Shown here: positions 3,715-33,337 of the stretch, one piece after another | How positions within the stretch are numbered: position 1 is the stretch's first letter | Layout: each line of letters begins with the position of its first letter | DNA from: Jimgerdemannia flammicorona | Taxonomy: Eukaryota | Assembly (NCBI GenBank): GCA_003990765.1 | Contig: RBNJ01000299.1 | Span: forward strand, 1-33,823 | DNA: 33,823 nt | Direction of reading: 5' to 3' | Translations under genes and position numbers: made by a program | Notes under the pieces: generated by a model | Told to the model about the DNA's origin: nothing | Databases searched by the model: none | The model's input: only the letters and a program-made list of their open reading frames with translations

Positions 3715-4328
3715 TGAAATGCATAACCTATGTGATGAGACAGATGAAATGTTCACAGATCTCATCTTCTTCAATTATGATGAGGATGAAGCCTCCATGG
3801 TTCTGAACATCCTACTTTAAAGTTCTTGGTGACATTGAATTCTGTCAGCATTCTTTTTCCATGTAACAGTTAATCCTTCTACTAGTATTCTGATCTTATG
3901 TGACTCAGAATTCTTTCAGCATCCTTTTTCTGTACTACTGAATTCTACCAGCACTCTGAACTTATGTAACCATCTGTACCAATACTGGAATCTGTACTGA
4001 CAACTGTAGTTTTCTGTATTTCAGTATTTTATTTGGTTATTGGAATTTATATTTAGCTTTATATCTTAGTAACTATTGAATTATATTTTATATAAATACC
4101 CCTCTTATTTCCTTTGAAATAAAGTCAGTTCCAGTTCACTTACTCTCAATTCCACACAAGCAATCTAAGAGATAATAAGACAATTTAAAGATAAGAAGTT
4201 TGAGGACTATAAGATCTTAGGAAGGCACTCCAATAAGAACTTGCTTATAACAAACTTGAGTTAGTCTAAGAGATATACTTTGAAGAGAATCTGACATATT
4301 TAAAGGACTCAGCAACCACTATGTGACA
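3715..4328 (+). repeat. 5' LTR (first ~70 bp missing)
   Basis: Gap-free match to 16576-17189 at about 90% identity. Ends ...GTGACA. TATAAATA at 4091 and AATAAA at 4118. Confidence 0.95.
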
Positions 4329-4331
4329 ACT

Positions 4332-13200: not shown

Positions 13201-13900
13201 TCCTATCAGACTCCAATTATCTGACCATGGGCACCAAACCACCTCCAATATATCTCAGACATTCACTCCCTAGCACTCTGCCATCAACATCCAGTTGATC
13301 CTAAAGCCCAGACCTGTCATCTAGTGAGTATAAATTCAGTACTCCACCCAAAACTATTGCCCTGAGTCAACTAAGGAGCTCAACCTCTCAATCTCTATTC
13401 AATCATCTAACCCACCACTTCTGTCTCTCATTCCTCTCCCACTATCAGTTCTATCTACCCTATTATTACATACTACATATGTTAAAATCATCCCCCAGGT
13501 AATCAATTCCTACCTCACCCATAACACTAGCCTCTCTCAAGTCTCTGATCCAATCTATATATTTCTCTCTCTCAGCTGGGCAATAATATGACTCAATAGT
13601 CAAAGAGTTCCACCCAGGTCTCTTCTATACTCCCTATACCAACCTACTCTCCCAATGTCCAATATCCCCAATGTCCCTCATCTCCTTTTGAACCAGAATG
13701 CCCACCTGCCCAGTCCATATAGCTGCCCCACCCCATTCTCTAGTCTAGTCCTGTAAGTCTATGTCTATCTCATATTGCACATCCTATAGTAAGAAGAGAT
13801 CTGCATCCAGTCCCTTCAACCAGCCAAATATATTCCTGCACCATACTGCTCCCCTCAACCCATTCACATTCAAAGAAAAGATTCTAGTTGTACTGTTCAT
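10300..13900 (-). pseudogene. LINE copy 2 ORF2 (APE-RT-CCHC), many stops
   Basis: ATG at 13900. Motifs: GERPTRF, PGEDRLPWDFW, LLNIDCKL, VPQGDPLSP, GAFADD (~11773-11790). FEYEEC...QTSEHWLGEY is a decayed CCHC finger (~10650-10730). 3' end approximate. Confidence 0.9.
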
Positions 13901-13931
13901 ATTAAATAATGTTTAATATTGAGAACCCAGT

Positions 13932-15836
13932 CTAGAATTCTATACTTATGTATCTCATCACCAGTAAGATCCAAGCACTACTCTGCCTCCAACTCACTCT
14001 CTGCTACAGCCTGAGTATCTAGTGCTTCCAAGATTTCCTGACACTCCACCCCATCCACAACCTCCATTTCTGCTCAATAATCCATACATACCACTCTCTA
14101 CTTCTCCAACCCCTTTCTTGAATTCCATAAGTATACTATCTAGTCATTTGTAATCTCTTGAAAGATCTCCTCCTTCTGATCATCTACTTGATATTCCTCT
14201 GACTCCAAGAGCACCACCAGGATCTCATTTCTAATCTTCCTCGGCACCTTCTCCCTATGGAGAATTTCCTCCCAATGCCTATCACTTAGGACCTGGAAGT
14301 TCTCTCTCCCTAGCTCCTCAGCCACCACCTCCTTCAGAGTCTTCTATAGCTACTTCTCTTCATCCACTACCTCAGCAACACTCTGAGCAACTTCTTTGAT
14401 CTCCACCACAGAGTCCACCAAGGTGCTCCTCCTCCCCGACTCATCCCACTCCTCCTCCAATATATCTAGTAATTTCTCCTCCCCACCTGCCCTGCTCAGG
14501 ATACCATACTGAGGGTGGACTTTCTTACCCATTTCAGTATTCTCCACCATGCTGCCCAGTCCCTCCTCACTCGATCCATCCTGGGCTACATCCTGAGTCA
14601 TCCCATGCTCCTCTGCCCAAGCACTCTCTATCAGTCTGGCACCCCCTTCTCCTGCACTACTGCCTGCCACACCCCCTCCCAACTTCTCCAACAGCTCCTT
14701 CTAGATTCATCTCTCCTGCACCTTCTCCCAGGTCACCTAGTCCATCCTGATCTTCTTTCCATCCACAATCTCTACCACCATCTTGGCTTCATACTTCTTC
14801 CAAGTCAATCTCCTCCTCTCTACTACTCCTGCCAGATCCTCAAGAGCCTCCAGTAAGTCCTTCTCTTCCTCTGGTATCTTCTTCACCTGTGAAACCTTGC
14901 ATTCAACTGATCCCCACTTAAGGGTTACTGGCCAATCCCTTGTCTTCCCAGTATTCTCTCTCTCAGTCAGTCTCATCCTGATGTTGACATCTCTCATCTG
15001 GAGTTCAGTATCCTCCCAGACTCTGAACCTGATGTCCATGATTTCTCCATATTCCTTGACCACCTCCACAATCAACTCTCTGCCCTTCTCTCTTGACACT
15101 ATAGGAAGATTCAACACCATCAACTACACCACTCAGAAGTTCCAGCACATGCACCTGGCCATAGGGACTACTACTTCACCCACTACTACTCTCTTCTCCA
15201 CAGTCTCCAACAATGATGCCTCTTCCTTAAATCCAACCTCAATCCCTTCTTTCCCCTTCAAGAACTTTACTGTAGCTGCCCCCTTCACCTCCTGCACCAC
15301 TAGCCCCAAAATCATCCTTGCAGTTATCACTAAGCCTCAGAAGCACAATGTGATGGTGAATTCTGACCTTGACTTTTTGAGTAATAGTGCTGACACCATA
15401 CCAGTCATACTATCTGCCAGGTCCCCAGGCCTCATATCCTCCCCCTGTCCTGATCTGCCAACAACTATCACATTTGGATTTTTTTCCAGATCTCCAGTTA
15501 CAGCTCCATCAGCAGTCACATACTTAGCCTCTACTCCCCCCCCCCTATGGGGGCCCCTCTCTGTCCTCCAACTGAAGCCATTGATGCCTTCTCCAGTCCC
15601 AACCAACTATCCAGACCAGATGCCATTCTCCCCATCTTGACCTTGTCAGCAAGGGTCATCCTTCTCTCTCCTTGTTGCCTCAATCTGCCCCTTCCTCTAC
15701 CACCAATACTATGGCCAACCATAGAAGGCTCTGGCATCCCCAAACCATCTCCCTGCCTCCTCCCTACATACTGCCAGTTGAAGGCACTACTGTTCCCCTG
15801 GCCAATATACTTACTAGCATATTCATTGCTGTCTAT
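13932..15836 (-). pseudogene. LINE copy 2 ORF1, disrupted
   Basis: Fragments align with 525-2444. The start codon is mutated ATG>ATA and there are multiple stops. Confidence 0.9.
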
Positions 15837-15923
15837 ATTGATAGTCTCCTTTTACCAAAAACATTGCAGAAAGTGTTGTCTAAATCTTGTATTACCTAAA
15901 TGTTATCAGTGAAAGTTATAATA

Positions 15924-16504: not shown

Positions 16505-17189
16505 TGTTATAGATTGGAGAGCACTGCCAAATGTGATGATATCATTGGCGATAACATCATCTCATATGACATATGTAAAATGTGTGACCTATATGATGAG
16601 ACAGATGAAACATTCATAGATCTCATCTCCTTCAGTAATGATGAGGATGAAGTCCCCATAGTCCTGAACATCCTGCTTTAAAGTTCTTAGTGATACTAAA
16701 TTCTGCCAGCATTCTTTTTCCATATAACAGTTAATCCTTCCACTGGTATTCTGATCTTGTATAACTCAGAATTCTTCCAGTATCCTTTTCCTGTATCACC
16801 AAATTCTACCAGCACCCTGAACTTGTGCAACTATCTGTACCAATACTAGAATCTGTACTGACAACTGTAGTTTTCTGTGTTCCAGTATTTTATTTGGTTA
16901 TTGGAATTTATATTTGGCTTTATATCTTAGCAACCATTGAATTATATTTTGTATAAATACCCCTCTTATTTCCTTAAAAATAAAGTCAGTTCTAGTTCAC
17001 TTACCCTCAATTCCACACAAGCAATCTAAGAGATAATAAGACAGTTTAAAGATAAGGAGTTTGAGGACTATAAGACCTTAGGAAGACACTCCAATAAGAA
17101 CTTGCTTATAACAAACTTGAGTTAGTCTAAGAGATATACTTTAAAGAGAATCTGATATATTTGAAGAACTCAGTGACCACTACATGACA
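16505..17189 (+). repeat. 3' LTR (685 bp)
   Basis: TGTTATA...CATGACA is consistent with an ancestral TGTCACG...CGTGACA inverted terminus. It follows the PPT and matches the 5' LTR from 16576. Confidence 0.92.
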
Positions 17190-17487
17190 ATACTTATGAC
17201 ATGGTGATTTTGTATATTGGAGATCCTAGGATGTGTTCCCTTAACACATATTTTTGAGTGTCACACCAATATTTATTCAGCAGTACTTTAAACGGTTTAC
17301 TTTTTATTCAGAAGTATGTGCTCTGTTATTAATAAAATTTGTCTATAGGAGGCAATAGGAACTCAGTTTTGTGAACCCATAGTAAAGCAAATCTGATTTC
17401 CTGTCCTCATTTGGCAGTAGGCCATCAATGTGCCTTTTAATTCCGGCCTAGCTTACCCTCATAACAATCTCCATTACTCCATCGCAG

Positions 17488-17899: not shown

Positions 17900-18329
17900 G
17901 TTGTCCACCCACAGAACCTGTCCGGTGAGCCTATCGTGTGCGCCACCCTGGTAGGGAGTCCCTGTGCGCCGGTGTCGGATCATGCGAACTTCGAGATCTT
18001 GCATTGGCCAGCTTTCCTCTTTTTCTTGGTTGTATTTTATGAAGTAAACTGTAGGTTCACATATGGGCAACTACAAACAATTCATAAACAACTTTTCACA
18101 ACAAAAAAACACCTACTTCTGATGTGAATGGTATCTGCAGAGAATGCATGGGTCCGAGTGTCGACGGGGTTAACACCGACAAGGGTTCTGGTGTGAAACT
18201 TTGATGAGGGGCGGTGAAAGAAGATAACAGCGGTGGCGATCTCGTATTACGACAGGATGCCGCATTTCTTGGCTGTCGGTCGGAGTGCGGTGGGCACGTC
18301 CTTCGATGGGATCTTGTAGGCGGCTGGCA

Positions 18330-19513
18330 TCGCTTAGTTCTAAGTCGAGGTTGGAGTCGGTGTCGTTTCAGTCCTTTAAGAATAAAATGAGCTCGTTGCG
18401 ATAACCTAAGGAAGAGCATAGGTCTTCTGGATACCATCGTGCTCCTTTAGATATTGCAGATAGCGGTCGACTCCATAGCGCTTTCCGTCCCTGACAATAT
18501 AGTAAAGCTGCTCGAGAGCCTTCCCTATGACCTCCTCTGAGTCGGACTGATCATTGCATAAACCGTCGATGATAGTAGAATAGGTATTGTCTCCGAGACA
18601 AACCATATTATATTTTTTGCAACGAGCGCACGGGACACCCCCATGACATCCCTTGGCTCTCATTTTGCACCAACTGCATGCCTTGCCCCGGCGCAACCCT
18701 TTCCATTTTCTTCATGGAGATGTGGCGAGGACACCGCCTCTTTCCGCGCCGACAATCCGAGCTTTATTATATTTAGGCGGCGTTTCGACGGATAATGTGG
18801 TCGATTCTTGCGTCGCATCAATTTTAGGAGAAAGTGCTGAGGGAGTATTTTCGATTGCGATAGTTGGTAATTGACTTTGTGTAACTTCGTCGACTTGACA
18901 GACCATTCAAGGCATAGCAGCAAAAAGGTCTTTGCCAAATATACTGGAGTTAAGGGCATCCTCCACGGTTGTGCTGCTGAAATTGGGATCTCCGTGGTTG
19001 TGTTGATTGATTCCCTCCATATAAATCTCACTGAGAGCGACGCTGTCACCGGGTATGTCGAAATGGAGGTCGAGTTCATCTTTGTCGAAGATCTTCGCCG
19101 AAGAATTAGAATAAATTGGTATCTCCGTGGTGGCATTGGTTGGATGCCTCACCGAGTGCGCTTAGTGAGAAATCGATGTTGGGATCAGATTCAGCGATGT
19201 CGTGACTGAGTATGTCGGAGGGATCTTCATGATGATATTAGTTGAATTCCTCACCGAGTACGCTTGGTGAGTTGTCGATGTTGGATCAGAGTCTGGTATG
19301 TCGGAATGTGAGTCGGTTTTATCTTTGTCAAAATTGTCGAAATCGGAGAACGTGTTGAGGTCCACTTCGCCAGTGTTCATCAAAGGTGCCGTAAATTTTA
19401 CCATCCAGGATGCTGAGATCTAGCTCGATGTCTGATTGGGCTTGGATATGAGTTGCGTCGCTAGTATGTTGGGCTTGGAGGACGTCCTCAGTGCCGAAGA
19501 GAGCTAGACACAC
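18330..19513 (-). pseudogene. Zn2Cys6/acidic-repeat family paralogue A (frameshifts and a stop)
   Basis: Fragments align with the intact copy. The cluster CSWCKMRAKGCHGGVPCARCKKYNMVC is intact. The start position is GTG. Confidence 0.88.
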
Positions 19514-20643
19514 CGGACAGGTGCAGAGGATGCAGGAGGTTTTGAAATGAGAAGACGTTGTTTTGATAGAGGGATCAAATGGAGGAAAGATATGAATTGT
19601 TGGCGAGGTACACTCCTCCTGGCGCTCAAAGTCCAAGTGCGAGCTTCTCAAGTATCTCGTGTGCGCCATAAACACCTGCGACTTTATGTCTCGGCATGCG
19701 CTATCGACAAATAAATGAATGCATTAAATAGATGAATTTCGGTGATTAATACAAAGAAGATAAAAGAAAAGAAACACGGTGAATCTCGCATTTGATCGCT
19801 CTCCAGTATTGTTTGACATAATGAATCTCCATCTTCTATGTTTTGAATTCAAAGCATCTACTTTTTCGCTTAAGCAAAAAAAAAAAAAAAAAAAAAAGCT
19901 GATCATGTATAACCTCACCATTTCTGTCCGATACAAGATTTCCTGTTAAATTATTGTAGTTCCAAGCCGAGATTCGACAAAATTGTGGTTCTAAACTGGA
20001 ATTCGACAAATCCCATGACCTGCAGCCAAGTACGTGGTCGTATTTATTACTACTACTAAGCAAATTTTGATCACAGTTCAGGCAACACCTTCGAGCTTTC
20101 GTGTGCGCCACAAACACCTGCGATTTATGAATTTGTGTCAGCTCATTAGTCTATACCCACCCTGGCAACCCAGGCCTTTGGGCTGATTACAAGATCCCAG
20201 ACTTGTTTACGATCACATGGTGAGCGCCCTCATTGGATCATCCTAGCCCAAAACTGGACCGCGGGTTTCATCAAGGCCGCGGTACGCGCACTGCACTTGG
20301 AACCCAGTGATCCGATGTAATTACCCCACCCCGTCTCGATGAACGCTGCTGCGGCATGCGTACTTTTCCGGTCAGCGAATGGCCAATACCATAACCTCGA
20401 CTTCCATGCCCGGCGTAACTGAGAAGTGATAGACGCCAGCCAAGCCAGCATCTAACAATACTCTCGGCTCCAACAAACATACTCTCCCGCCTCTAACATG
20501 CTCTCCCACCCTGCACATGACCGGTGCGTCATTTAAGGAATTCGCACAAATCGCTCTTCATGCGTCATTGCTTTGGAACATACTATTTATTGGAAAATAT
20601 TTATCAACATCTTGCACATCGCCGTCAAAGGGTATAGAAAAAG

Positions 20644-20688
<45 letters not shown>

Positions 20689-20756: not shown

Positions 20757-21737
20757 CTAGACCTTAGCAACGTCGTTTTCAATGCTTGAATAAATTTTCC
20801 TAACGTGAACCACGGTGGCCATGGCTGGCAACCACAACCTTTTCGCATACCCCTCATATGTTTCATCTTCGAGTATATCCATGACCGTATTCCCGTCGGC
20901 AACCGGATGTTTGTTCAAGTGTTCATGTAAGCGGCGCAAGGCGCGGGTGGCGGACTCGCTGGGACTGGAGGCTGTTTGCTTAAGATCGCGAAGAAACGTG
21001 TCGATGAGTTCCACCAAGCCGAGCCAGTAGTCGCTAAAGAGGACGAGCTCGTCGGTCAGGGTTTGCAGACTGCTCGTGATATTGCCAACGATTTGGGTTG
21101 CACCGTCGTAGTCCACGTTTTGGATATCGATACACTCAGCCTGGAACCCGTTGACACCTGCACCGATCCCGGTTCCGATGGAGACGGCGGAGCTGACGCC
21201 GAATACAACCATAGACAGGCCAAAGGTGAAGGGAGCGGCGATGAGGGAAGCAGCCGCGACGCCGGCGAAGGTACCGGCAACGATAGACTGATCCTTGTTG
21301 GCTTGCCTGTGGTGATTCTTCGCCTCGATGTCGTTCTTGAGCTCGCTCGCTTTGTGATGGAAATCAGTCTTGATAGCATTGAGCTCGGCAAAGAAGGACT
21401 TGAAGTGGTCGTTCGACCACTTGGCTTTCAGTTCATCCTCCAACCGACGTCCTTGTGTGATGAGGTCATCGAGAACATGAAGGCTTCTATGGATGGGATC
21501 CCCTGGCTGGAACGGTGTCAAATTTTCGATAACACTTTTGGCGTAGCATGCGCAGCGAGTGGCAACCGTGTCCGTTTCCGATAGCAAAGGAGAGAGACGG
21601 GACAAAGCAGGGCCGTGTTCGATATGGGCATTGTTGTAAAACGAATTGAGTTCGCTACAGCCATTGTAGAAGGCGGTGCGGGCCACCCTGATTCTTGCGA
21701 TATCAACTCCTGGGTCCGCGTTAGTCGAGAGTTTCAT
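20757..21737 (-). CDS. 326-aa intronless helical protein with a central Gly/Ala hydrophobic hairpin; Hbl/Nhe/ClyA- or ApoL-like pore-former candidate
   Basis: Clean ATG-to-stop ORF. A coiled coil precedes IVAGTFAGVAAASLIAAPFTFGLSMVVFGVSSAVSIGTGIGAGV, followed by an amphipathic helix ending FSDYWLGL. The gene call is strong; the family assignment is inference. Confidence 0.75.
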   Translation of the reverse strand: MKLSTNADPGVDIARIRVARTAFYNGCSELNSFYNNAHIEHGPALSRLSPLLSETDTVATRCACYAKSVIENLTPFQPGDPIHRSLHVLDDLITQGRRLEDELKAKWSNDHFKSFFAELNAIKTDFHHKASELKNDIEAKNHHRQANKDQSIVAGTFAGVAAASLIAAPFTFGLSMVVFGVSSAVSIGTGIGAGVNGFQAECIDIQNVDYDGATQIVGNITSSLQTLTDELVLFSDYWLGLVELIDTFLRDLKQTASSPSESATRALRRLHEHLNKHPVADGNTVMDILEDETYEGYAKRLWLPAMATVVHVRKIYSSIENDVAKV

Positions 21738-21999: not shown

Positions 22000-23273
22000 G
22001 TCTTTATATTGCAGATAGCGGTAGACCCCATACGTATTCCGTCACTGACATGCAATAAAGCTGTTCAAGAGCCTTCCATGTGATCTTCTTATCCGAGTCG
22101 GACAGTTTATTGCGCAAACCGTCGATGACAGCAGGATAGGTATTGTCACCGAGACAAGCCCTGCCATGTTTTTTGCAACGAGTACACGGGACGCTCCAAA
22201 ACATCCTTTGGCTTTCCATCTTGTACCAACCGCATGCCTGCCCGGCCCAACTCTTTCCACTTTCTTCAAGGAGACATAGCTAGGACAGCGCTTCTTCCTA
22301 CGCGGAAATCCGGACATTGAATGTATTTAGGCGGTGTTGCGATGGATGGTATAGTCGAAATCTATGTCGCATCAATTTTAGGAGAAAGTACCGAGAGAGC
22401 ACTTCCGGTTGCGATATTTGGTGATTGACATTGCGTAACTTCGCAGATCATCCAAGGCATAGCAACAAGAAGGTCTTCACCAAATATACTGGAGTTGAGG
22501 TCATTCTCCACGGTTGTGCTGCTGAAATTGGGATCTTCGTGATTGTGTTGATTGAATCCCTCCATAGAAATTTCATTGAGAACGGCACTGTCATTGCGTA
22601 TGGTCGAGATTGTCTTTTTCAATGTCCATGTGCTGAACAATTGGATAAAATTAAGATCTCTGTGGTGGTATTGATTGGATTCCTTACCGAGCGTGCTTAG
22701 TGAGAAGCTGATGCTGAAATCGGAGTCGAGATTAACTTGGAGAGATTCAGCGATGGTATGTCGAAACAGAAGTCGAGTTTATATTTGTCCACGTCCATAT
22801 GAAAGCCTTCGCTGAATAATGGGATAAAATTGGGATCTTCAGTGGCATTGGTTGGATTCCTCGCCGAGTGTGCTTGGTGAGTAGTCGATGTTGGGATCAG
22901 AGCCGAGGTTAATAACTTAGAGAAGTTCAGCGATGCCGTTGCCGGGTATTTCAAACCGGAAGTCGAGTCCATCTTTGTCGATGTCCATGTGAAGGTTTTC
23001 GTAGTGGTATTGGTTGAATTCCTCACCGAATCGCTTGGCGGGTAATCGATAGTCAATTTTATCTTTGTTGAAATTGTCGAAGTCAAAGAACGTGTTGAGG
23101 TCCTCTTCGACAGTGTTCATGCGCTGTAATCGAGGATGTCATAAATTTCACCATCCAGAATGCTGCGATCCAACTCGGTGTCGGATTGGCCATGACGGAT
23201 TTGAGTTGCGTCGATAGCATGGCGACTATAGTTGGGCTTGGAGAGCGTCACCATTAAAGAGGGTCAGACACAT
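22000..23273 (-). pseudogene. Zn2Cys6/acidic-repeat family paralogue B (frameshifted, 3'-truncated)
   Basis: ATG at 23273. Contains RRKKRCP, PCTRCKKHGRAC and VIDGLRNKLSDSDKKITWKALEQL. Similarity stops at ~22000. Confidence 0.88.
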
Positions 23274-23288
23274 CTAGCACATTGTAGA

Positions 23289-24700
23289 AAACACCACGCG
23301 GGAAACCCAACGGGCGATGACGGCGGGCGAATAGATAGTAAACCATTGGCCTTCACACGTCACTTGTTTTATACACAATGCGCGACGTTTCAAACCCATA
23401 TTGTTGTGGAATTTTGCACCTCTTTTTTTCAATTTGAAATATAAGACCACAATAACAAAAATGGTGATGGTGACCATTTGAGTTACTGTCGAAAGCTATA
23501 CAAAAATAAATGAAATGCAAGAGATAAGGGAGGGAGGCTACATTTATCCACAAGTGGTAACAAACGTATCAAGTGAAAGCACGAAGGATGTGCACGAGTT
23601 GTTATGGCGGCGCGCGCTGATGTGTGCGACTAGTGCTTACGAAAATTCAATGTTGCGCGATATTAAGACACCGGTAATTCAGCGAGATGATGTTGATGGT
23701 GAGTGTAGATTCACCATCTTGTTTTTTTACTGCTATCACTTTATAACACCGTTTTGACATATTTTATTTCATAAACGGTTTTCCTGTGTGCTCTGTGAAT
23801 TAAAGAAAAATTGACGTCCGAATCTACAAATCTCTTGTGATATGAAAGCCATTCCTTGTCTCATCCCACTCAAGGTTATCGACTGCCCAGCTTTTGTTCG
23901 ACATTATCCTTAAGTTCGACGTGATTTCCACAACTTTGACTGCGTCTTTCTTTTTTTTTGACCTTATTAAAACCCCGGCTGGTAATACCCGACAAATATG
24001 CCTTGTGCACCTGTGCGTATCTTGACAATTTTGCTGGCTTAAGGTTATCGGCGACACAGTCCTCCATCGCGTGCCTTGGTTCCTGCACGCTGTACTGGAG
24101 GTTGACAACCACGACCTTGGGCAGTAGTCGAACGACGCTATGCACAAGTACTTGAGCATGACAAAGCCGTAATAAATGTCCGTCACCGTGACGAACTGTC
24201 CTGCGTGCCGCTACCAAACAGGACTGCAAAATACTCGCTGCGGGCGGCGAGGAAACCCGTGCGAATGTGGGAGCTCCCGGTCGTCGATTTCGAAGGCGGA
24301 CGTCGCGGTTTGGAGGAAGTTCAATAATTGATATGTATGACAGAATGGACTCTATAGCTAATTACATATTAACAACTAGCCTCCGTGTAACGAGGTCTCT
24401 GGGTTACAAAGCTAACTTCCATGAAACCCAAGAAGCGTGGCCTTGTTCGAAAACATGAATAAAGCGCAAATTCAACAACGAAGTATTCATCTCGATGTAA
24501 TCCATTTCAAAGTCAAGTTGACGTAGACCAACGAATCCGTTGCCAAAGGCAATTCGCTTTTGCGGTAATTAGAAATGATTTGCGAACGTCTGATAGTAAC
24601 AGCCGTGACATCTAAAGCTTGTTGACATAGTTTATTTTGACGTAAAGGCGTCACCGCAGGCAAAACGGATATTGTACAGGTAGAAAACAGCTTGATGAAA
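23289..24700. repeat. Duplicated upstream segment of paralogue B, homologous to ~30271-31570
   Basis: Colinear shared blocks include GATGTGTGCGACTAGTG, AAGTACTTGAGCATGAC, GTCGATTTCGAAGGCG, CGTGTAACGAGGTCTC and TAGACCAACGAATC. Confidence 0.85.
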
Positions 24701-26074
24701 GGCATAGAAGACCCATAGGCGACGTTTTGAAATGTTCGGAGCCAGATCCTCGTTAGTCAAAGGGCATAACAAAGTCGAACTTTTAGACATCATTATTGTA
24801 GAGTAATGTGCACGTTAGGAAGCAGTTTGTTTCGAGATTTTAAATACGGTATTTGCATTAGGAGGGTTAGCGGATCATCTGCCTCCAGATCACGCCAGGC
24901 TGCGGAACGGGTTCCAGCCATGCTTAGGGGTTGGCTTTTTTTTTTTTTTTTTTTTTTTTAATCACTGCATATCTATTTCACGTCCACTCCCCTTCAACCA
25001 CAATGCAGACTCCAAAAATATCATCGACAGCAAATTTAAATATGTCTCAGGAAGGCTGGGACTTATGTAATTTGAGCTATGTTTTTTCACGGGTTAAATT
25101 GTAACTTGAATACCGTGAGTAAATGTCAGTGAACTTTAAGGTTTTATACTTTGGAGAGAGTAACAATTATATTGATCGGTTGATTTGTACTGTGTTAAAT
25201 GATCAAATCTGTATTGATATGTATATTGTTTGTGGCTTTTCAATTGCCTCCACCTCATATGCGCAAAGCTTCTAAATGAATGATTCGCTATTACGGTACG
25301 GTCACGCCAGGCACCACGCCCCTCAGGTCGTCTTCAGGCTGTTCCGCTGCTTTTACTCGGCGGCTTCATGGGATGTGCGTCGAAATTCGAATGTCTGCAA
25401 TGATGCCCACCGCGCTGGAGGGAAGGAATGTTAGACTGGAGTAAATGGCAATATTGATTCTCGCATTCCCAGCATACATACGCCGTTTATCCATCCGCCA
25501 TGATACGATAATTGCTTTTGCTTGCCAGTAGCTCTGCAACCTCCATCGATGAAACATGTTTTGTGAAGTTCCCATTTGACAGAATAAGAAGATCATGATT
25601 CAATCTTTCGTTTATGCCAACTTGCAATGTTCGCCGACCACCCGCAATCGCACCGCCAGTCGCATTGTGTCTGGGTCACGCTGTAATAAGATTACATGAT
25701 CGAACGTGAGGAACAGGCAGAGATTGGTCACGTGATGTGGTTTATAGAATCGTCACGCTTTCCACGTGCGATTGTCGTCACACGGTGCTAAGAGGACTCC
25801 TCCAGGAAAGGCATGCAAGTGGTGCAGAATCGACAAGAAGTGATGACAACGCAACCCTTGTATTCGTTGCCTTTATCACAACAGGTTTTGTTTCAGGAGC
25901 AGTATCTATCCTATTGTGATTAGTTGGCCCCAACAATAGCCTCCATTACAGATTAATGAGCTTTGCTCAAATTATGACAACTTATATTATTAGGGTAAAT
26001 AAATAACTGGTTTATTAGCTTGAAACTACTATCATTACTTCAATCCAACATAACCAGCATTGTGGAGTATAAAA

Positions 26075-26310
26075 TATTACAGATCAAAATGCTAAAATAA
26101 GGAACTTAGAGTCTAAAAAAGGTCATAAAAGTAGTCTTAGAGATATATATTCTCAGATTTGATTCAGATTTAGTAATAACTGAATATGAGGTCAATTTTG
26201 GTGAAGTACTTGATATTTTTGAGCATATTAAAGATTTGGTCAATAGGTGATAGAGAATATTAGTTTTTAATGATAAGCTTGTTGAGAGCTTAGTAGTTTA
26301 TATATAAAGG
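26075..26310 (-). pseudogene. Highly decayed Ty3/Gypsy RT fragment within an AT-rich, CpG-poor relic (~25910-26790)
   Basis: Translates as LYINY*ALNKLIIKN*YSLSPIDQIFNMLKNIKYFTKIDLIFSYY*I*I...KTTFMT, matching the Gypsy RT consensus LCIDYRALN...YPLPRID...YFTKIDL.SGYHQI...KTAF. Confidence 0.85.
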
Positions 26311-26992
26311 CTCTTTTTTTTTTTTTTTTTTTTTTTAATAAATAAAATTAGTGAATTAAAGAGAGACTTGTTAGATTAAATAGTTTTATATATAAGTAAT
26401 TTTCTAATTCTTTCTTAACTATTTCAATTTTGAGTAGTAATATTTCTAAAAATAGGGTTCAAATCAGACCCTCAATTCAATTTGAATTTGATTCAATTCA
26501 AAATTTATTTGAATTGAAAAATCCCCAATTCAATTTATTTGGGAATACTAAATATAATACATAATAATAATAATAACTTTTTGCAAGATTGATTCATTTG
26601 TTAAGCTATTTCTATAAATAAATAATAAATAAAGTATATTTGAGATTATTTTTATTTCATTTTATTTCATTTTATTTATTTTTTTAATAATATTTTTATT
26701 TTCTTCAAATAGTGTATAAAGATAGTATTTGAATATTTTTCAAATCTGTCGTATCAAATTTAAAAGACTGTTTTGTTTGCAGAATACTAAAAAAAAAAAA
26801 AAAAACTCAGACAGTTTCGAGTGTAAAAGAAATGAAACTTTCTTATAAATGCAAAGAAACTATGTCAACATTTATTTAGATATCTTGCTTGGCCAGCAAC
26901 GGTTGACATTAAAGGTAAAACGCCAGTTACATATGTAAAGATCCTAGGCATGATATACAGCACTATCCTTTACATCCTGAATAGGGTCCTAG

Positions 26993-27861
26993 CTAAACTT
27001 TTAAAACCTGTTGGAAAAAATCAGCCGAAAGCTGCAAGGCCTCCGTGGCACGCTGCTTGTTCAATGGGTCCGTGAAGTTACCACGCGCAGCTACCCAACC
27101 ATGATGCATGTCATCAAACCTATGGTGGTACGAGTGCGCGCCGAAAGGTTTGCTCTTGATAATGTCAAAGAATTCTGACAGGTCGGCTTCATCCTTGGAT
27201 GGTAGAAGCAGGATAGGTCCCTGGGCCTTTTGAGCATCTTCAAGGATCAGCTGAGACGGATGGATCAGCGCAGCGCCAGCATACCAGCTGTCTTTACCGG
27301 TGGCTGTGATGGCGATTTTGGCGCCCCAGCAAAAGCCTACAATGCCGACGGATTGAAACCCGGAGGAGGTGAGGTATTGTTTGACCTTGGCGAGGTCAGG
27401 AGAAATCTGGAAAATGTCGTGCATGCACCATATACACTAATCAGTAATGCATTGAATTGTGACGCCTTCTTAATCGCTCCGAATGACCACTTACCACATC
27501 CCAGTTTCCGACTGTGCCTATCCACTCCATCAATTTGTCCCTTCCGAGAGCCATCTTCTCAGGGGTGCACGGTTTGCCACGAAAGAAATCGGGCATGACA
27601 ACCCTGAATCCATGCGTGTTGGCCAGAATATCGGCGAACTGCTTGGTGTTTTGGCTGAATACATGATAATAAATAATAAATATGGATAATAACAAAAAGG
27701 GAGTGGAACAAAGAGAGTAATTGACCAAGATGTAATCAACAACGCCATGACTTACTGGAAGCCCATTATGTCGTAGACGACGATGACGGCACGCTTGGAA
27801 TCCTAAATAAAGGAAGAGGTTCGGTTAATATATATATATATATTTCTGGCAGTACTAAATC

Positions 27862-27905
<44 letters not shown>

Positions 27906-28032
27906 CATCAAGTACCTTTGGGCCAACGGTATAGACAGGAAGATCATCGATTTGCTCAAGCAGGCCCACAGGCGCATAATCCGATTCGACGGGTGGGACA
28001 GCGCAACAAACAGGAGGTAGGATGGCAGCCAT
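26993..28032 (-). CDS. Dienelactone hydrolase family (alpha/beta hydrolase, AIM2-like), 4 exons, 245 aa
   Basis: Exons 28032-27916, 27802-27756, 27654-27495 and 27406-26993, all with GT-AG introns, total 738 nt in frame. Motifs YDIMGF, VMPDFFRG, GFCWG (nucleophile), PSKDE and MHHGW. Confidence 0.93.
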
Positions 28033-29091: not shown

Positions 29092-30108
29092 TTAGTTCTG
29101 TATCGAAGCCGAGGTTGGAGTTGGTTTTGTCGCGTTAATCAAAAAATCGCGGTAAAATGAGGATACGCTGTATTCTTGGCAATTGATAGCATAGATCTTC
29201 TGGATGCCGCCATGCTCCTTTGGATATTGCAGATAGCGGTCGATTCCATAGTGCTTTCCTTCACTGACAATGCTCGAGAGTCTGTCCGGTGATATTCTCA
29301 TCCGAGTCGGACAGCTTATTGCACAAATCGTCGATGATGGTAGGATAGGTATTGTCTCCGAGACAAGTCGTGCCACGTTTTTTGCAACGAGTACACGGGA
29401 TGGCTCCAAGACATCTCTTGGCTTTCGTCTTGCACCAAATTCATGCCTTGCCCCGCCCAACTCGTTCCACTTTCTTCAAGGAGACGGGCATTGATTGTAT
29501 TTAGGCGGTGTTACAATGGATGTAGTCGACTCTTGTGTCGCATTAATTTTAGGGGAAGGTATCGAAAGAGAATTTTCGGTTGTGGTAGTTGGCGATTAAC
29601 TTCGTCGACTTGACAGGCCATCCAAGGCGTAGCAACATGAAAATCTTCGCCGAATATGCTGGAGTTGAGATCATCCTCTATAATTGCTTCGGGGAATGAT
29701 TGAAAATCAACCACCATAGTTATACAGCTGGAATTGGGATCTTCGTGGTAACATCGATTGAATCCCTCCATATTAATCTCACTGGGAGTGAGGCTGTGAC
29801 CAGGTATGTCGATTGTCGATGTCCATGTGAAGGTTCTCGCTGGATAATCGGATGAAATTGGGTTATTCGTAGTGGTATTGGTTGAGTTCGTCACCGAGTG
29901 TGCTTAGTAAGTAGTCGATGTTGGGATCAGTGTCGGGTGTGTCGGAATGCGAGTCGACTTTATCTTTGTTGAAATTGTCGAAGTGTTCATGCTGCCGCCA
30001 TAGATTTCACAATCCAGGATGCTGAAATCTAGCTCGATCGCTAGCATGGTACTCCGATCCGAGTTGGCTTTGGAGGGCGTCCTCACCGTTAAAAAGTGTT
30101 AGACTCAT
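29092..30108 (-). pseudogene. Zn2Cys6/acidic-repeat family paralogue C (frameshifts; first cluster Cys is TGA)
   Basis: ATG at 30108. Contains GKA*IWCKTKAKRCLGAIPCTRCKKRGTTC and YGIDRYLQYPKEHGGIQKIYAIN. Confidence 0.88.
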
Positions 30109-30270: not shown

Positions 30271-31570
30271 AAATACCACGTGGGAAGGTTGGAACGGCAC
30301 ACCTACCCAACGAGCAAAGGATGAATGGATAGCCTCCACACGTCGCTTTGTTTTATTCTCCGCTATACAAAGTTGCGACGTTTCAAACATGGAACCGCAA
30401 CAACATTACTATCAAAAAAAAAAAAAAAAAAAAAAAATACGAGGTAGAGAGAGAGAGAGACTACATTTATACACAAGTACAAACATATCGAACGAACCGG
30501 TGATGTGTGCGACTAGTGAAAATTTAATGTCGCACGATGTTGAGGCACCGGAACCTCAGGAATCGGGAAGAGAGGTGATGATGTGAGTGTAGAATCACCA
30601 TCTTGTTTTTAGTGCTACAACTTTTGACACTTTTTTATTTCATTAAAGAGTTGTTCAGTAGATATTGTTTCTTTCCACTATCCTGTGTGTGTCGTAAAGT
30701 AAAGGTAACTGACGTCCACCTCTCCAAATATCTTGTGATATAACAATCATTTCCTGTATCATCCCGCTCGAGGTTAAACTACCCAGCTTTTTGCTTCACG
30801 TCATCTTTCGCAAGTGCGTCACAATCTCGTCAGTTAATGTCTCCTATTCCACAATATCGATCTCTTGACCTCACCAAAGTTTTTGCCGACATATCTTGCG
30901 CAGGGACAGGCACCTGTGCGATAATTGTGCTGACGGTTACCGGCGACACAGCCCTCCATCGTGTACTGGAGGTCGACAGCCTCGACCTTGAGCAGTAATC
31001 GAACGACCCCATGTATAAGTACTTGAGCATGACGAAGCCGTAATCAAAGTCCGTCGCCGTGACAAACTGTCCTGCTACCATGGCATGCCGCTGTCAAACA
31101 GGACTGCTGCAGGCGGCGAGTGCGGTCGTCGATTTCGAAGGCGTGCGTCGTTGTACTTTGGGATTTGGAGGAAGATTCAATAATTGATATGACAGAATAG
31201 ACTTTAATAACTACAGTAACGTAACTGGCCGAGTCAACTTCTAAAGGTCTGTAGGTTTACAACTAGCTCTCGTGTAACGAGGTCTCCGGGTGGTTCTATG
31301 AAACCCAAAAAACTCTGGCCACGTGGCTTTCGAACACATGGTAATAAAGCGCAAATATAACAACGCAGTATTCACCTTTATGCAACCCTTTGCAAATATA
31401 GACCAACGAATCTATGCCAAGGGCCATTCGCTTTTATGTTAAGTTAGAAATATTTTTAGCGAAAAGCAAAGCTCCGACTATTAGTAACATCAAAAGCTTG
31501 TTGGCATGGTTTATTTTTTTACATAAAGTCATGATCGTAGACAATGCATATGTCAACTGATAGAATGGAT
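30271..31570. repeat. Duplicated upstream segment of paralogue C, homologous to ~23289-24700
   Basis: Same colinear blocks as 23289-24700. In addition, 31400-31880 is echoed at 28530-28980. Confidence 0.85.
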
Positions 31571-31909: not shown

Positions 31910-33337
31910 TCAGTCAGCATGTCCTTGATCACTTAGTTCTGTGTCGACATTGGAGTCGGTGCTGTTGCAATCCCGCAAGTATGAGACAAGTTTGGCATGA
32001 TAAAATGATAAAAGTTTTGGACGATTAATTGCATAAATCTTCTGGATGCCGCCATGCTCCTTTAGATATTGTAGGTAGTGGTTAACTCCATAGCGCCTTA
32101 TATCCCTGACAATGTAATAAAGCTGCTCGATTGCCTTCCTTGCGGTATTCTCATCTGAGTTGAACAGACTATTGCACAAACTGTCGATGATAGTAGGACA
32201 GAGGCAAAGCACGTTATCTTTTTTGCAACGAGCACACGGGGCGCCCCCAAAACATTTTTTGGCTTTCATCTTGCACCAACAGCACGCCTTGCCCGGCCCA
32301 ATTCTTTCCATTTTCTTTAAGGAGACGTGACGGGGACAGCGCTTCTTCCTTCTCGAACAGTCCAGGCATTGATTGTATTTAGGCGGCGTTGCGATGGATG
32401 ATGTAGTCGATTCTTGCGTCGCATCAATTTTAGGGGAAGGTACCAAGGGAGCATTTTCGGTTGCAATAGTTGGTGATTGACTGTGTGAAACTTCGGCGAC
32501 TTGACAGACTATCCGAGGCATAGCAGCAAGGCCTTCTCCAAATATACTGAAGTTGAGACCATTCTCTACGGTTGTGCTGTTGAAATTGGGATCTCCGTGG
32601 TTGTGTTGATTGAATCCCTCTATATCAATTTCACTGAGAGCGACACTGTCACCAGGTATGTCGAAACGGAAGTCGAGTTCATCTTTGTCGATATTCATGT
32701 GAAGGTCTTTGCTGAATAATTGGAATAAATTGGGATCTCCATGGTGGTATTGGTTGAATTCCTCACCAAGTGCGCTTAGTGAGAAGTCGATGTTGGGATC
32801 GGAAGAACGGGTGTCGAGTTTATCTTTGTCGACGTCCATGCGAAAGTCTTCGCTGAACAGTTGGATGAAATTGGGATCTTCGCCGTTGTATTGGTTGAAT
32901 TCCTCACCGAGTGCATTTGATGAGTAGTCGATGTTGGGATCAGAGTCGAGGTTAACTTGGAGAGGTTCAGCGATGCTGTCACCAGGTGTGTCAAAACGGG
33001 AGTCGAGTTCATCTTCGTGACGGCATTGGTTGAATTCGTCACCGATTGCGTTTGGTGGGTAGTCGATGTTAGGATCAGAGTCGGGTATATCGGAATGCGA
33101 GTCGATTTTTGCTTTGTTGAAATTGTCGAAGTCAAAGTACGTATCGAGGTCTTCTTCGACAGTGTTCATGCTGCTGTCATCGAGGATGGCATAAATTTCA
33201 CCATCCAGGATGCTGGGATCTAGCTCGAAGTCGAATTGATCTTGCTGGATGTGAGTTGCGTCGCTAGCATGGTACTCCGGTTGCGATTCGAGTTGGGCTT
33301 GGAGGACGTCCCCACCGTTAAAAAGAGCTAGACACAT
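31910..33337 (-). CDS. Intact Zn2Cys6 protein, paralogue D (~475 aa): acidic repeats, half-cluster, Zn2Cys6 cluster and importin-alpha-like C-terminal segment
   Basis: Uninterrupted ORF; the ATG at 33337 is also present in copies B and C. CCWCKMKAKKCFGGAPCARCKKDNVLC at 32204-32284 fits CX2CX6CX5CX2CX6C. Confidence 0.9.
   Translation of the reverse strand: MCLALFNGGDVLQAQLESQPEYHASDATHIQQDQFDFELDPSILDGEIYAILDDSSMNTVEEDLDTYFDFDNFNKAKIDSHSDIPDSDPNIDYPPNAIGDEFNQCRHEDELDSRFDTPGDSIAEPLQVNLDSDPNIDYSSNALGEEFNQYNGEDPNFIQLFSEDFRMDVDKDKLDTRSSDPNIDFSLSALGEEFNQYHHGDPNLFQLFSKDLHMNIDKDELDFRFDIPGDSVALSEIDIEGFNQHNHGDPNFNSTTVENGLNFSIFGEGLAAMPRIVCQVAEVSHSQSPTIATENAPLVPSPKIDATQESTTSSIATPPKYNQCLDCSRRKKRCPRHVSLKKMERIGPGKACCWCKMKAKKCFGGAPCARCKKDNVLCLCPTIIDSLCNSLFNSDENTARKAIEQLYYIVRDIRRYGVNHYLQYLKEHGGIQKIYAINRPKLLSFYHAKLVSYLRDCNSTDSNVDTELSDQGHAD

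Follow-up and report, generated by a model that had tools for sequence, protein, structure and literature searches.

Organization of the locus

The window, the whole 33,823 nt stretch of DNA that was analysed, carries four copies of a gene, and only one of these, designated P0001, is preserved as an unbroken frame, as deduced from the stop-to-stop frames and tblastn (Table 1). Frameshifts or stops occur in the three other copies, which share 75–82% DNA sequence identity with the intact one (81% for copy 1, blastn). The region around the locus is rich in retroelement copies. A neighbouring gene has a single relative in the databases.

Table 1 Features of the intact gene and its paralogues, given as positions in the window.
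Feature	Position	Strand	Description	Basis
Paralogue copy 1	18329..19513	-	Frameshifted; tail frame 18409-18711 still readable	tblastn (two frames), stop-to-stop frames, blastn
Paralogue copy 2	22055..23273	-	Broken; tail readable only to ...KALEQLY	tblastn, blastn, stop-to-stop frames, paralogue alignment
Paralogue copy 3	29134..30108	-	Broken; tail split over frames 29264-29440 and 29095-29277	tblastn, blastn, stop-to-stop frames, paralogue alignment
P0001	31910..33337	-	Intact single-exon ORF, 475 aa and stop codon; holds the features below	ORF listing and translation
N-terminal acidic region	32438..33337	-	Residues 1-300, net charge -53	Composition, motif positions
Half cluster	32336..32368	-	Residues 324-334, CX2CX6C, CLDCSRRKKRC	Regular expression on P0001
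Complete Zn2Cys6-type cluster	32204..32284	-	Residues 352-378, CX2CX6CX5CX2CX6C	Regular expression
Tail, whole	31913..32197	-	Residues 381-475, 95 residues behind the cluster	Unit used in the tests
Tail, ARM9-aligned part	32099..32191	-	Residues 383-413, aligned to importin-alpha ARM9 helices 2 and 3	BLASTP, HMM, hhalign
Tail, ARM10-aligned part	31952..32089	-	Residues 417-462, aligned to importin-alpha ARM10	BLASTP, HMM, hhalign

The N-terminal acidic region of the predicted protein contains three repeat units of 135–141 nt (45–47 aa) each, with the motifs DPNIDY, EEFNQY and GDPNF-QLF; at the DNA level they correspond to repeat families D1-D3 and D9, spaced 141 and 135 nt apart. No family was found in a Pfam scan of this region, which may be of the activation type.

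The zinc cluster

Gal4-type Zn(2)-Cys(6) clusters hold two zinc ions and, mostly as dimers, recognize DNA sites of the CGG type. In the protein they are usually followed by a linker and a coiled coil. The six-cysteine sequence of P0001, CCWCKMKAKKCFGGAPCARCKKDNVLC, has the spacing CX2CX6CX5-12CX2CX6-8C expected of such a cluster, and the half cluster upstream of it encloses a basic RRKKR run. Against Pfam Zn_clus (PF00172) the intact copy scored 11.5 bits (E 0.35) and copy 1 scored 18.4 bits (E 0.0023), both below the gathering cut-off of 21 bits; when scanned in full at E up to 10, the protein matched neither Zn_clus nor any other family. The best sequence matches of the whole protein in the PDB (phmmer) were PUT3 (E 0.05) and GAL4 (E 1.1).

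A phmmer search against 1.84 billion representative proteins gave four matches, all of them via the cysteine cluster and none to an importin. Three of the matched proteins, P0003, P0004 and P0005 (E 3.6e-4 to 6.2e-4), pass Pfam Zn_clus at 40–59 bits, so that the likeness of the cluster to proven members of this family is significant. The database relatives of the 475 aa protein are Zn_clus proteins only. In a homologue search of the whole protein over 5.8 billion proteins, none of 2734 candidates (lengths 261–832) reached E 0.01 or better.

Targeted comparison of the tail with importin-alpha

In the armadillo fold, repeats of three helices each stack to form a right-handed superhelix, and in importin-alpha the last repeat, ARM10, is covered by the atypical C-terminal repeat Arm_3 (PF16186). 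The initial annotation placed a likeness to importin-alpha ARM9-10 in residues 383–438, and its coordinates proved exact, with residue 383 at 32189–32191 and residue 438 at 32024–32026 on the minus strand of the 475 aa ORF, directly behind the canonical six-cysteine cluster. The sequence quoted there for the segment is the consensus of the four paralogues, but the intact copy differs and reads IIDSLCNSLFNSDENTARKAIEQLYYIVRDIRRYGVNHYLQYLKEHGGIQKIYAIN. The pattern said to be shared with importin-alpha holds at 16 of its 21 specified positions in the intact copy, while K, I, L, G and R positions are found in the broken copies only. The importin-alpha C-terminus quoted there is close to real fungal sequences fetched for this work, for example ...INRYALFIEECGGMEKI.

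For the comparison, 52 importin-alpha C-termini were fetched; the three that were checked all carry Pfam Arm and Arm_3 and are thus true importin-alpha, scoring 71–86 bits on Arm_3. BLASTP of the tail against this set gave HSPs at E<10 with 42 of the 52 sequences, in one register throughout (ARM9 helix 2 to ARM10), the best HSP having 34.3 bits and 26–27% identity over 92 residues. The ARM9-aligned part of the tail reads CIKPLCDLL...D.KII.VALEGLENILK and the ARM10-aligned part N.YA..IEE.GG..KI ... IY.KA, the last helix being weakly aligned. A BLAST extension back through the zinc cluster (query 350–382 against KEACWAISNATSGG...) was treated as spurious because it arises solely without composition correction.

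An HMM built from the 52 C-termini scored the tail at 11.5 bits and the reversed tail at 1.0 bit; none of 5000 shuffled tails reached 11.5 bits, the maximum being 7.8. With an HMM of full-length importin (28 sequences) a single match was obtained, between positions 415–498 of 531 and tail residues 3–82. By hhalign the single tail sequence gave a score of 32.2 (probability 64.9%), which rose to 39–40 (88.6%; 87.3% in a second run) when paralogue fragments were added, against null maxima of 24.6 for 300 shuffles and 22.8 for 365 natural windows of 95 aa, none of which reached 25. Against the full-length importin profile ARM9-10 scored 39.9 and the next alternative 12.2, which is the null level. 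The P values of 9.4e-6 for the HMM and about 3e-6 for hhalign refer to single comparisons and overstate the significance, since the likeness had been seen before the hypothesis was formed. A generic ARM repeat was rejected as the sole explanation because Pfam Arm was not matched and importin repeats 1–8 were not aligned above the null level.

At the level of single columns, there are 30 importin-alpha positions with at least 90% conservation, and the intact copy has the identical residue at 11 of them (14 of 30 counting the paralogues), with an overall identity of 26%. The intact copy lacks the importin invariants P71, L95, G98 and Q128 as well as the E92-N93 pair; retained are the nearly invariant K within GG..KI and the acidic residue that precedes GG. 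These last two may correspond to residues named in the literature.

Unbiased searches

When the tail and its paralogues were used as a profile against the PDB, importin-alpha was the top family (E 0.062, 16.6 bits), only 1.5 bits above the best unrelated protein (E 0.17, 15.1 bits). Importin-alpha accounted for 39 of the 45 matches listed, and the alignment contained one 1-residue gap over 68 columns; KPNA2-type sequences alone reached E 10, and importin-alpha of yeast, Neurospora and plants did not. As a single sequence (phmmer, PDB) the tail ranked importin-alpha third, at E 1.8 and over tail residues 3–93, behind two unrelated families; these chance matches, RBL1 and phosphoserine aminotransferase, vanished once the paralogues joined the profile. 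With the whole protein as query, no importin was found in the PDB by phmmer at E up to 10.

Comparison with Pfam Arm and Arm_3, proposed in the initial annotation as a check, yielded no match to either at E up to 10, nor to IBB, whether the query was the complete protein, its C-terminal 156 residues, the 56-residue segment or copy 1, and ESM Atlas gave no usable match for residues 320–475 or 381–475. When all 671 stop-to-stop frames in the window were scanned with the importin HMM, P0001 came first, but with only 8.2 bits (E 0.065), meaningless frames following at 7.0 and 6.4 bits; copy 1 scored only 3.4 bits.

As judged from sequence comparison, the resemblance to importin-alpha is real but weak, and whether it appears to exceed chance depends on the test: it does so in the targeted ones, and in the unbiased searches the excess is borderline or absent.

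Predicted structure of the tail

A first AlphaFold model of the tail (model 1) had low confidence (pLDDT 53) and contained helices at residues 381–393, 396–416, 419–427, 430–435 and 445–462. These five fall where the aligned ARM helices should lie, with reference to the helix limits that we take to apply to importin-alpha. A wide VIA search with model 1 returned generic solenoid matches, ARM and HEAT proteins alike at Z 8–9.7 for a model of pLDDT 53, with HEAT/ARM solenoids scoring as well as importin-alpha. In a second look by VIA, 27 of the 50 matches listed were importin-alpha, all superposed on the C-terminal repeats (for example 411–497 in mouse and human alpha1, 416–510 in Kap60, 410–507 in Neurospora) with Z 8.7–9.5 and rmsd 2.0–2.5 Å over 76–84 residues. 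Model 1 is not fully independent evidence, as AlphaFold may itself have picked up the sequence likeness.

Addition of the paralogue rows (model 2) did not improve the confidence, which stayed low (pLDDT 59.8), and the 13 matches listed for this model included no ARM protein, only coiled-coil-like entries at E 5–10. Prediction of a homodimer from two copies of the tail gave a score of 0.01, compared with a mark of 0.32, and counts neither way.

Origin of the tail

The initial annotation interpreted the protein as a fusion of a Zn2Cys6 protein to importin-alpha ARM9-10. In favour of this are the hhalign probability of 87–89%, the restriction of the match to ARM9-10 and the first rank of importin-alpha in the PDB profile search, though at an E value of only 0.06; the case is suggestive. 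Two outcomes had been named as counting against the fusion, and measured against them the result is mixed: Pfam and phmmer gave no significant importin-alpha match, and generic ARM and HEAT proteins fit the predicted structure equally well (Z 8–9.7).

The tail of about 90 residues probably descends from a 3' fragment of an importin-alpha gene, acquired by gene-fragment fusion. Taken as a whole, the explanation that we favour, with moderate confidence, is that of a lineage-restricted Gal4-type (Zn2Cys6) DNA-binding protein of unusual layout whose captured ARM9-10 tail diverged and was copied locally. The 3' fragment would have been joined behind the zinc-cluster exon, leaving a tail that runs collinear with ARM9 helix 2 to ARM10 helix 3, the C-terminal 1.7 armadillo repeats. 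The chimera would then have diverged strongly, to 26–27% identity, before being copied four times locally, three of the copies having since decayed. Downstream of the stop codon, where a poly(A) trace of a 5'-truncated retrocopy was sought, there was no more than a short run of A some 400 bases distant, and for this reason no claim of such an origin is made.

It is unlikely, though the likelihood is still appreciable, that the resemblance arose by chance or convergence, the amphipathic helices of a lineage-specific helical region, for example a linker or dimerization element as in Gal4-type proteins after the cluster, happening to match ARM9-10. This reading would account for the unbiased searches lying at or below the usual line of significance (E 0.06 at best, E 1.8 for the single sequence, nothing in Pfam or among the 1.84 billion proteins), for random window frames reaching 7.0 bits next to the 8.2 bits of P0001 with the same importin HMM, for the long helices and exclusively coiled-coil-like matches of model 2, and for the loss of about half of the conserved importin columns. 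It also draws on P0005, the nearest database protein reaching into the tail, which is an ordinary protein with an N-terminal Zn_clus and aligns with 27% identity over 113 residues, including DS.C..L and RR...NHY. On the other hand, hhalign scores of 32–40 are far outside the null maxima of 24.6 and 22.8, and the paralogues raise the importin score while other chance matches vanish. The match is moreover collinear over 65–90 residues, C-terminal in both proteins and specific to ARM9-10 among the ten importin repeats, all of which argues against this reading.

Whatever the origin of the tail, it may have no present function, the intact ORF being simply the last unbroken copy of a decaying family. 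The frameshifts or stops in three of four copies are consistent with such decay, as are dN/dS values near 1 (1.15 and 0.90) in two of the four frame comparisons, the lack of relatives among 5.8 billion and 1.84 billion proteins and the retroelement-rich surroundings. Yet the 475-codon frame has stayed open while all paralogues, at 75–82% DNA identity, are broken, and the frames that cover the tail give dN/dS values of 0.38 (96 codons) and 0.36 (44 codons) against the intact copy. The absence of relatives is weak evidence because the lineage is poorly sampled, as seen from the one database relative of a neighbouring gene. We regard this reading as distinctly unlikely.

Possible function of the tail

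In the favoured explanation, that of a captured ARM9-10 tail, the cluster would bind DNA, the acidic repeats would act as an activation region and the tail would keep a two-repeat ARM-type fold and serve as a protein-docking surface. In importin-alpha this surface accommodates Cse1/CAS-RanGTP, Nup2/Nup50 and certain cargoes. That the fold has been retained is more likely than that binding to Cse1 has been. The initial annotation went further and proposed a nuclear export handle or a decoy for nuclear transport. The tail would then still bind Cse1/CAS-RanGTP or Nup2/Nup50. In importin-alpha, CAS and RanGTP wrap around ARM9-10, an autonomous docking platform that also serves Nup50, pSTAT1 and Ebola VP24, according to PMC13648615, where the region is named the S1B domain; on the C-terminal region Nup2 and RanGTP overlap, according to PMC7891619. 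The K of GG..KI and the acidic residue before GG, both kept in the tail, point in the same direction. The proposal is nonetheless weakened by the lack of an IBB domain and the loss of conserved residues: the export complex relies also on the IBB, the contact of Cse1 Asp220 with importin-alpha Arg44 being described as central (PMC7891619) and three salt bridges to the IBB being reported (PMC13648615), CAS contacts ARM8 as well, which the 475 aa protein lacks like the IBB, and of the 30 conserved columns the protein retains just 11. Such binding by the putative handle or decoy is improbable.

It is just as doubtful that P0001 encodes a sequence-specific DNA-binding protein with a captured and still-used ARM9-10 platform, whose residence or activity in the nucleus would be set directly by the importin-alpha recycling machinery (Cse1/CAS-RanGTP, Nup2/Nup50) or which would titrate these factors as a decoy. 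If so, a transcription factor would have been wired to nuclear transport by domain theft and not by short NLS/NES signals. Should the fusion prove real, it would mean that ARM9-10 of importin-alpha can be transplanted and put to use in proteins other than the transport adaptor. Recent work portrays these two repeats as a distinct platform on which CAS, Nup50, STAT1 and a viral antagonist bind. A real fusion would also offer a straightforward way of asking, with a single small protein and its tail-less version, if ARM9-10 alone can recruit an exportin. It would further add a domain combination for zinc-cluster proteins that was not met with in the literature: judged by titles and abstract openings, no paper came up on such a protein carrying an importin or ARM domain, in agreement with the initial annotation, which knew of no family of this architecture. 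Were the likeness due to chance, the locus would simply hold an orphan family of zinc-cluster genes in decay, set in a region rich in repeats.

Comparison with known proteins

With Gal4/Put3-type factors (PF00172) the protein shares the exact CX2CX6CX5CX2CX6C spacing and the basic residues between the second and third cysteines. It differs in that the cluster lies at residues 352–378 of 475 and not near the N-terminus, an additional half cluster stands 18 residues upstream of the full one, the fungal-specific middle homology domain is not matched in Pfam and the Zn_clus score is under the gathering cut-off. An ARM-like tail takes the place of the usual linker and coiled coil.

The 475 aa protein is not a member of the importin-alpha family (Srp1/Kap60, KPNA) and is at most the carrier of a fragment. 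The IBB domain of importin-alpha is basic; here the N-terminal 300 residues are acidic and no Pfam family, IBB included, was found at E up to 10. Of the ten ARM repeats (Pfam Arm, PF00514) ARM1-8 are lacking, and with them the NLS-binding groove; Arm was not matched, and the importin HMM found only its positions 415–498 of 531. For Arm_3, Pfam gave no match, hhalign 87–89% on the ARM9-10 columns and the PDB profile E 0.062. In the tail the ARM9-ARM10 loop falls 4–9 residues short of its length in fungal importin-alpha, the intact copy departs from importin-alpha at 19 of 30 nearly invariant columns, and identity is 26–27%. What is common to both is a collinear likeness over 65–90 residues that spans ARM9 helix 2 to ARM10 helix 3, lies C-terminally in either protein and includes the motifs I..LC..L...D, A[LI]..L..I, N.Y...[IL].E.GG..KI and [FI]Y.

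A structural parallel is the C-terminus of KPNA5 in complex with Ebola VP24 (PDB 4u2x), which shows that the last ARM repeats can stand as a separate folded binding module. Residues 418–506 of this fragment (4u2x_D) superpose on model 1 with Z 8.5 and rmsd 2.2 Å over 76 residues at 21% identity. The KPNA5 fragment is a laboratory construct of 170 residues with more repeats, whereas the tail described here would comprise about 1.7 repeats in a putative natural fusion to a DNA-binding cluster.

Organization of the zinc-cluster gene and its surroundings

An unbroken 475-codon ORF (window 31910-33337, minus strand) encodes P0001. This protein lies outside the importin-alpha family; it belongs to the zinc-cluster proteins and ends in a tail that is unusual for them. 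Its acidic region includes three repeat units of 45–47 residues each, marked by the motifs DPNIDY, EEFNQY and GDPNF-QLF. The Pfam scan of whole P0001 reported neither Zn_clus nor the fungal middle-homology domain, and Zn_clus scored 11.5 bits with the C-terminal 156 residues and 18.4 bits with the frame of copy 1, both below the cut-off of 21. Residues 352-378 are nevertheless accepted as a predicted Gal4-type cluster, because the cysteine spacing is canonical, the PDB sequences most similar to P0001 are those of PUT3 (E 0.05) and GAL4 (E 1.1), and proteins found by phmmer pass Zn_clus (3/3 checked). The latter come from a search of 1.84 billion representatives that returned four proteins at E 0.001, each through the cysteine motif. 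Gal4-type proteins usually carry the cluster near the N-terminus, whereas in P0001 it comes roughly three quarters of the way along the chain. A half cluster sits 18 residues upstream of the complete one; as two of the four matches, P0003 and P0004, have two full Zn_clus domains in tandem, it may be a relic of cluster duplication. The top match, P0002, is a giant protein of 3486 aa in which the cysteine motif is matched at 32 separate places; as read from its sequence, it is a long array of zinc-cluster-like repeats.

Features of the contig and of P0001 (contig positions on the forward strand; P0001 positions as residues)
Feature	Position	Strand	Remarks
Acidic region	residues 1-300	-	net charge -53
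Half cluster CX2CX6C (CLDCSRRKKRC)	residues 324-334; 32336-32368	-	in basic stretch
Complete cluster CX2CX6CX5CX2CX6C	residues 352-378	-	
Tail	residues 381-475	-	last 95 residues
Broken paralogue copies 1-3	~18329-19513; 22055-23273; 29134-30108	-	same strand as intact copy
Intact 326-aa ORF	20757-21737	-	between copies 1 and 2; hydrophobic glycine/alanine-rich stretch
GC-rich element, two diverged copies	9-2523; 13411-15915		75.6% identity over ~2.5 kb
Second repeat pair, 613 bases	3717-4329; 16578-17190		90% identity
123-base repeat	24082-24204; 30953-31075		85% identity; beside BTB/POZ frame and between copies 3 and 4
Short frame, sub-threshold BTB/POZ match	24183-24320	-	E 0.025, 15.2 bits
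AT-rich island	26001-27000		GC 0.238 vs 0.42-0.49 around; just upstream of hydrolase ORF
ORF matching C-terminal two thirds of dienelactone hydrolase family	26993-27424	-	E 4.3e-11

The three broken copies share 75-82% DNA identity with the intact copy, and all contain frameshifts or stops. When the intact copy was compared with the frames still readable in the broken copies, dN/dS was 0.38 over cluster and tail (96 codons), 0.36 over the second half of the tail (44 codons), and 1.15 and 0.90 in two frames of shorter length; these values are a weak sign of past constraint. That the family is functionally dead, which would be compatible with the other readings, appears unlikely. No relatives of P0001 were found in the collections searched, the four matches among the 1.84 billion representatives being due to the cysteine motif only. 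The neighbouring 326-aa ORF has no Pfam family and a single relative among 5.8 billion proteins (40% identity, 321 aa). Since this intact gene too has just one relative, the lineage is poorly sampled, and therefore the orphan status of P0001 says little about the age of the family.

Diverged retroelement copies surround the zinc-cluster genes. Among the ORFs of the GC-rich element is a weak endonuclease/exonuclease/phosphatase match (E 4e-4), which suggests a LINE-like retroelement. The dienelactone hydrolase ORF probably represents a single exon within a larger gene. Recurrence of the 123-base repeat between copies 3 and 4 suggests that small neighbouring pieces were co-duplicated with the zinc-cluster genes. 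Runs of A or T of 20-40 bases occur between genes (19860-19900, 20629-20688, 27880-27925, 30415-30440 and the window end).

Likeness of the tail to importin-alpha

The initial annotation had noted an importin-alpha-like segment directly after the zinc cluster; this observation is confirmed, and translation placed it (32024-32191, minus strand) at residues 383-438, as described. The string quoted for it is the consensus of the copies in the window, and the intact gene matches 16/21 of the specified pattern positions by our own count.

Several of the unbiased searches showed no link to importin-alpha. At E up to 10, Pfam matched none of Arm, Arm_3 and IBB to any of four queries: whole P0001, the 156 residues at its C-terminus, the 56-residue segment and copy 1. 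No importin was listed by phmmer with whole P0001 against PDB or found in the exhaustive search of the 1.84 billion representatives, and ESM Atlas returned nothing for the C-terminal region. In PDB, importin-alpha ranked third for the tail alone (E 1.8; alignment spanning 91/95 tail residues), behind RBL1 (E 0.062) and phosphoserine aminotransferase (E 0.13). When the query was a profile built from all four paralogue tails (A1), RBL1 and the aminotransferase vanished and importin-alpha became the top family (E 0.062, 16.6 bits; 39/45 listed rows). The alignment pairs profile positions 3-70 with residues 421-489 of mouse importin alpha-2 (full length), and its only gap is one residue long. The importin-alphas reaching E 10 were KPNA2-type sequences only, and an archaeal virus protein, the best unrelated match, followed closely (15.1 bits, E 0.17). 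A targeted importin HMM, run across the 671 stop-to-stop frames that the window contains, tempers the likeness: the P0001 ORF ranked first at only 8.2 bits (E 0.065), with meaningless frames at 7.0 and 6.4 bits and copy 1 at 3.4 bits.

For targeted comparison, importin-alpha genes were taken from metagenome contigs by a degenerate pattern for a motif that we take to be conserved in the family. Of 118 loci, 52 were intron-free from motif to stop codon (170-210 residues) and were used, and the remaining 66, truncated or interrupted, were left out; Arm and Arm_3 were present in 3/3 pieces checked. BLASTP of P0001 gave HSPs with E<10 (for a 9,888-residue database) for 42/52, in a single register: residues 383/384 on CIKPLC and 418-435 on N.YA..IEE.GG..KI. 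The best HSP (34.3 bits, 26-27% identity over 92 residues) extends to the IY.KA helix. The HMM of the 52 C-termini scored the tail at 11.5 bits (P 9.4e-6), a value reached by 0/5000 shuffles (maximum 7.8), and the reversed tail at 1.0 bit; the HMM of 28 full-length importin-alphas matched solely at positions 415-498 of 531. By hhalign, the single tail sequence gave a probability of 64.9% (score 32.2), and inclusion of the paralogue fragments 88.6% (score 40.3, P 2.7e-6) and, in a second run, 87.3%. Against the full-length importin profile, the ARM9-10 columns alone rose above the null (39.9; next alternative 12.2), established from 300 shuffles (mean 12.2, maximum 24.6) and from 365 natural 95-residue windows of other ORFs of the fetched loci (mean 11.3, maximum 22.8). 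Among 30 importin columns conserved at >=90%, 24 fall within the aligned span and 11 are identical in P0001, 14 counting paralogues. The E92-N93 pair and four invariant importin residues (P71, L95, G98 and Q128) are absent from the intact copy, in which the acidic residue preceding GG and the almost invariant lysine of GG..KI are retained.

Structure models

Model 1, which AlphaFold predicted for the last 156 residues from the single sequence, has a low confidence (pLDDT 53). Its predicted helices (381-393, 396-416, 419-427, 430-435 and 445-462) coincide with the aligned helices 2-3 of ARM9 and 1-3 of ARM10, given the importin helix limits that we assume. Foldseek found no match at E 0.001; 10/42 rows shown were importin-alpha and 9/42 beta-catenin, further ARM proteins being present too. 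In VIA, 27/50 rows were importin-alpha, every superposition falling at the C-terminus of the importin (for example mouse and human alpha1, 411-497; Kap60, 416-510; Neurospora, 410-507), with rmsd 2.0-2.5 A over 76-84 residues and Z 8.7-9.5, in a range (below ~13) common among helical repeats. Proteasome, SARM1, APC, transportin and cohesin subunits scored the same, so that equally good generic ARM/HEAT matches, named at the outset as an outcome that would tell against importin-alpha, were found for model 1. For model 2 (pLDDT 59.8), built from the tail alone plus paralogue rows, the 13 matches listed were weak and included no ARM protein. Model 1 is thus consistent with the alignment and model 2 silent, and this structural evidence is not independent of the sequence signal.

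Origin and putative role of the tail

Because the hypothesis followed the likeness, the single-comparison P values (1e-5 to 3e-6) need setting against at least about ten thousand families; the effective E is then roughly 0.03 to 0.3, in rough agreement with E 0.06 from the unbiased PDB search. The proposed fusion is partly supported: the hhalign signal specific to ARM9-10 speaks for it, and the Pfam and phmmer results without importin, together with E 0.06 at best, speak against it and leave room for a likeness by chance or convergence, which we consider possible but rather unlikely. On the alignments, we lean towards a diverged importin-alpha gene fragment fused behind the zinc cluster. The titles and abstract openings covered by the literature search describe no such architecture.

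The suggestion that the tail acts as a Cse1/CAS export handle or nuclear-transport decoy, a sub-case of the fusion reading, is highly doubtful. In a 2026 preprint (PMC13648615), ARM9-10 is described as a separate docking platform, wrapped by CAS and RanGTP and bound by Nup50, phosphorylated STAT1 and Ebola VP24; CAS contacts ARM8 and the IBB domain as well, with three salt bridges to the latter. Another paper (PMC7891619) presents the contact of Cse1 Asp220 with importin-alpha Arg44 (IBB) as central to the complex, and the Nup2 and RanGTP sites as overlapping on the C-terminal region. Importin-alpha has an IBB domain and ARM1-8, whereas P0001 lacks both and about half of the conserved columns, and for this reason its tail would more likely have kept the fold as a putative docking surface than exportin binding.
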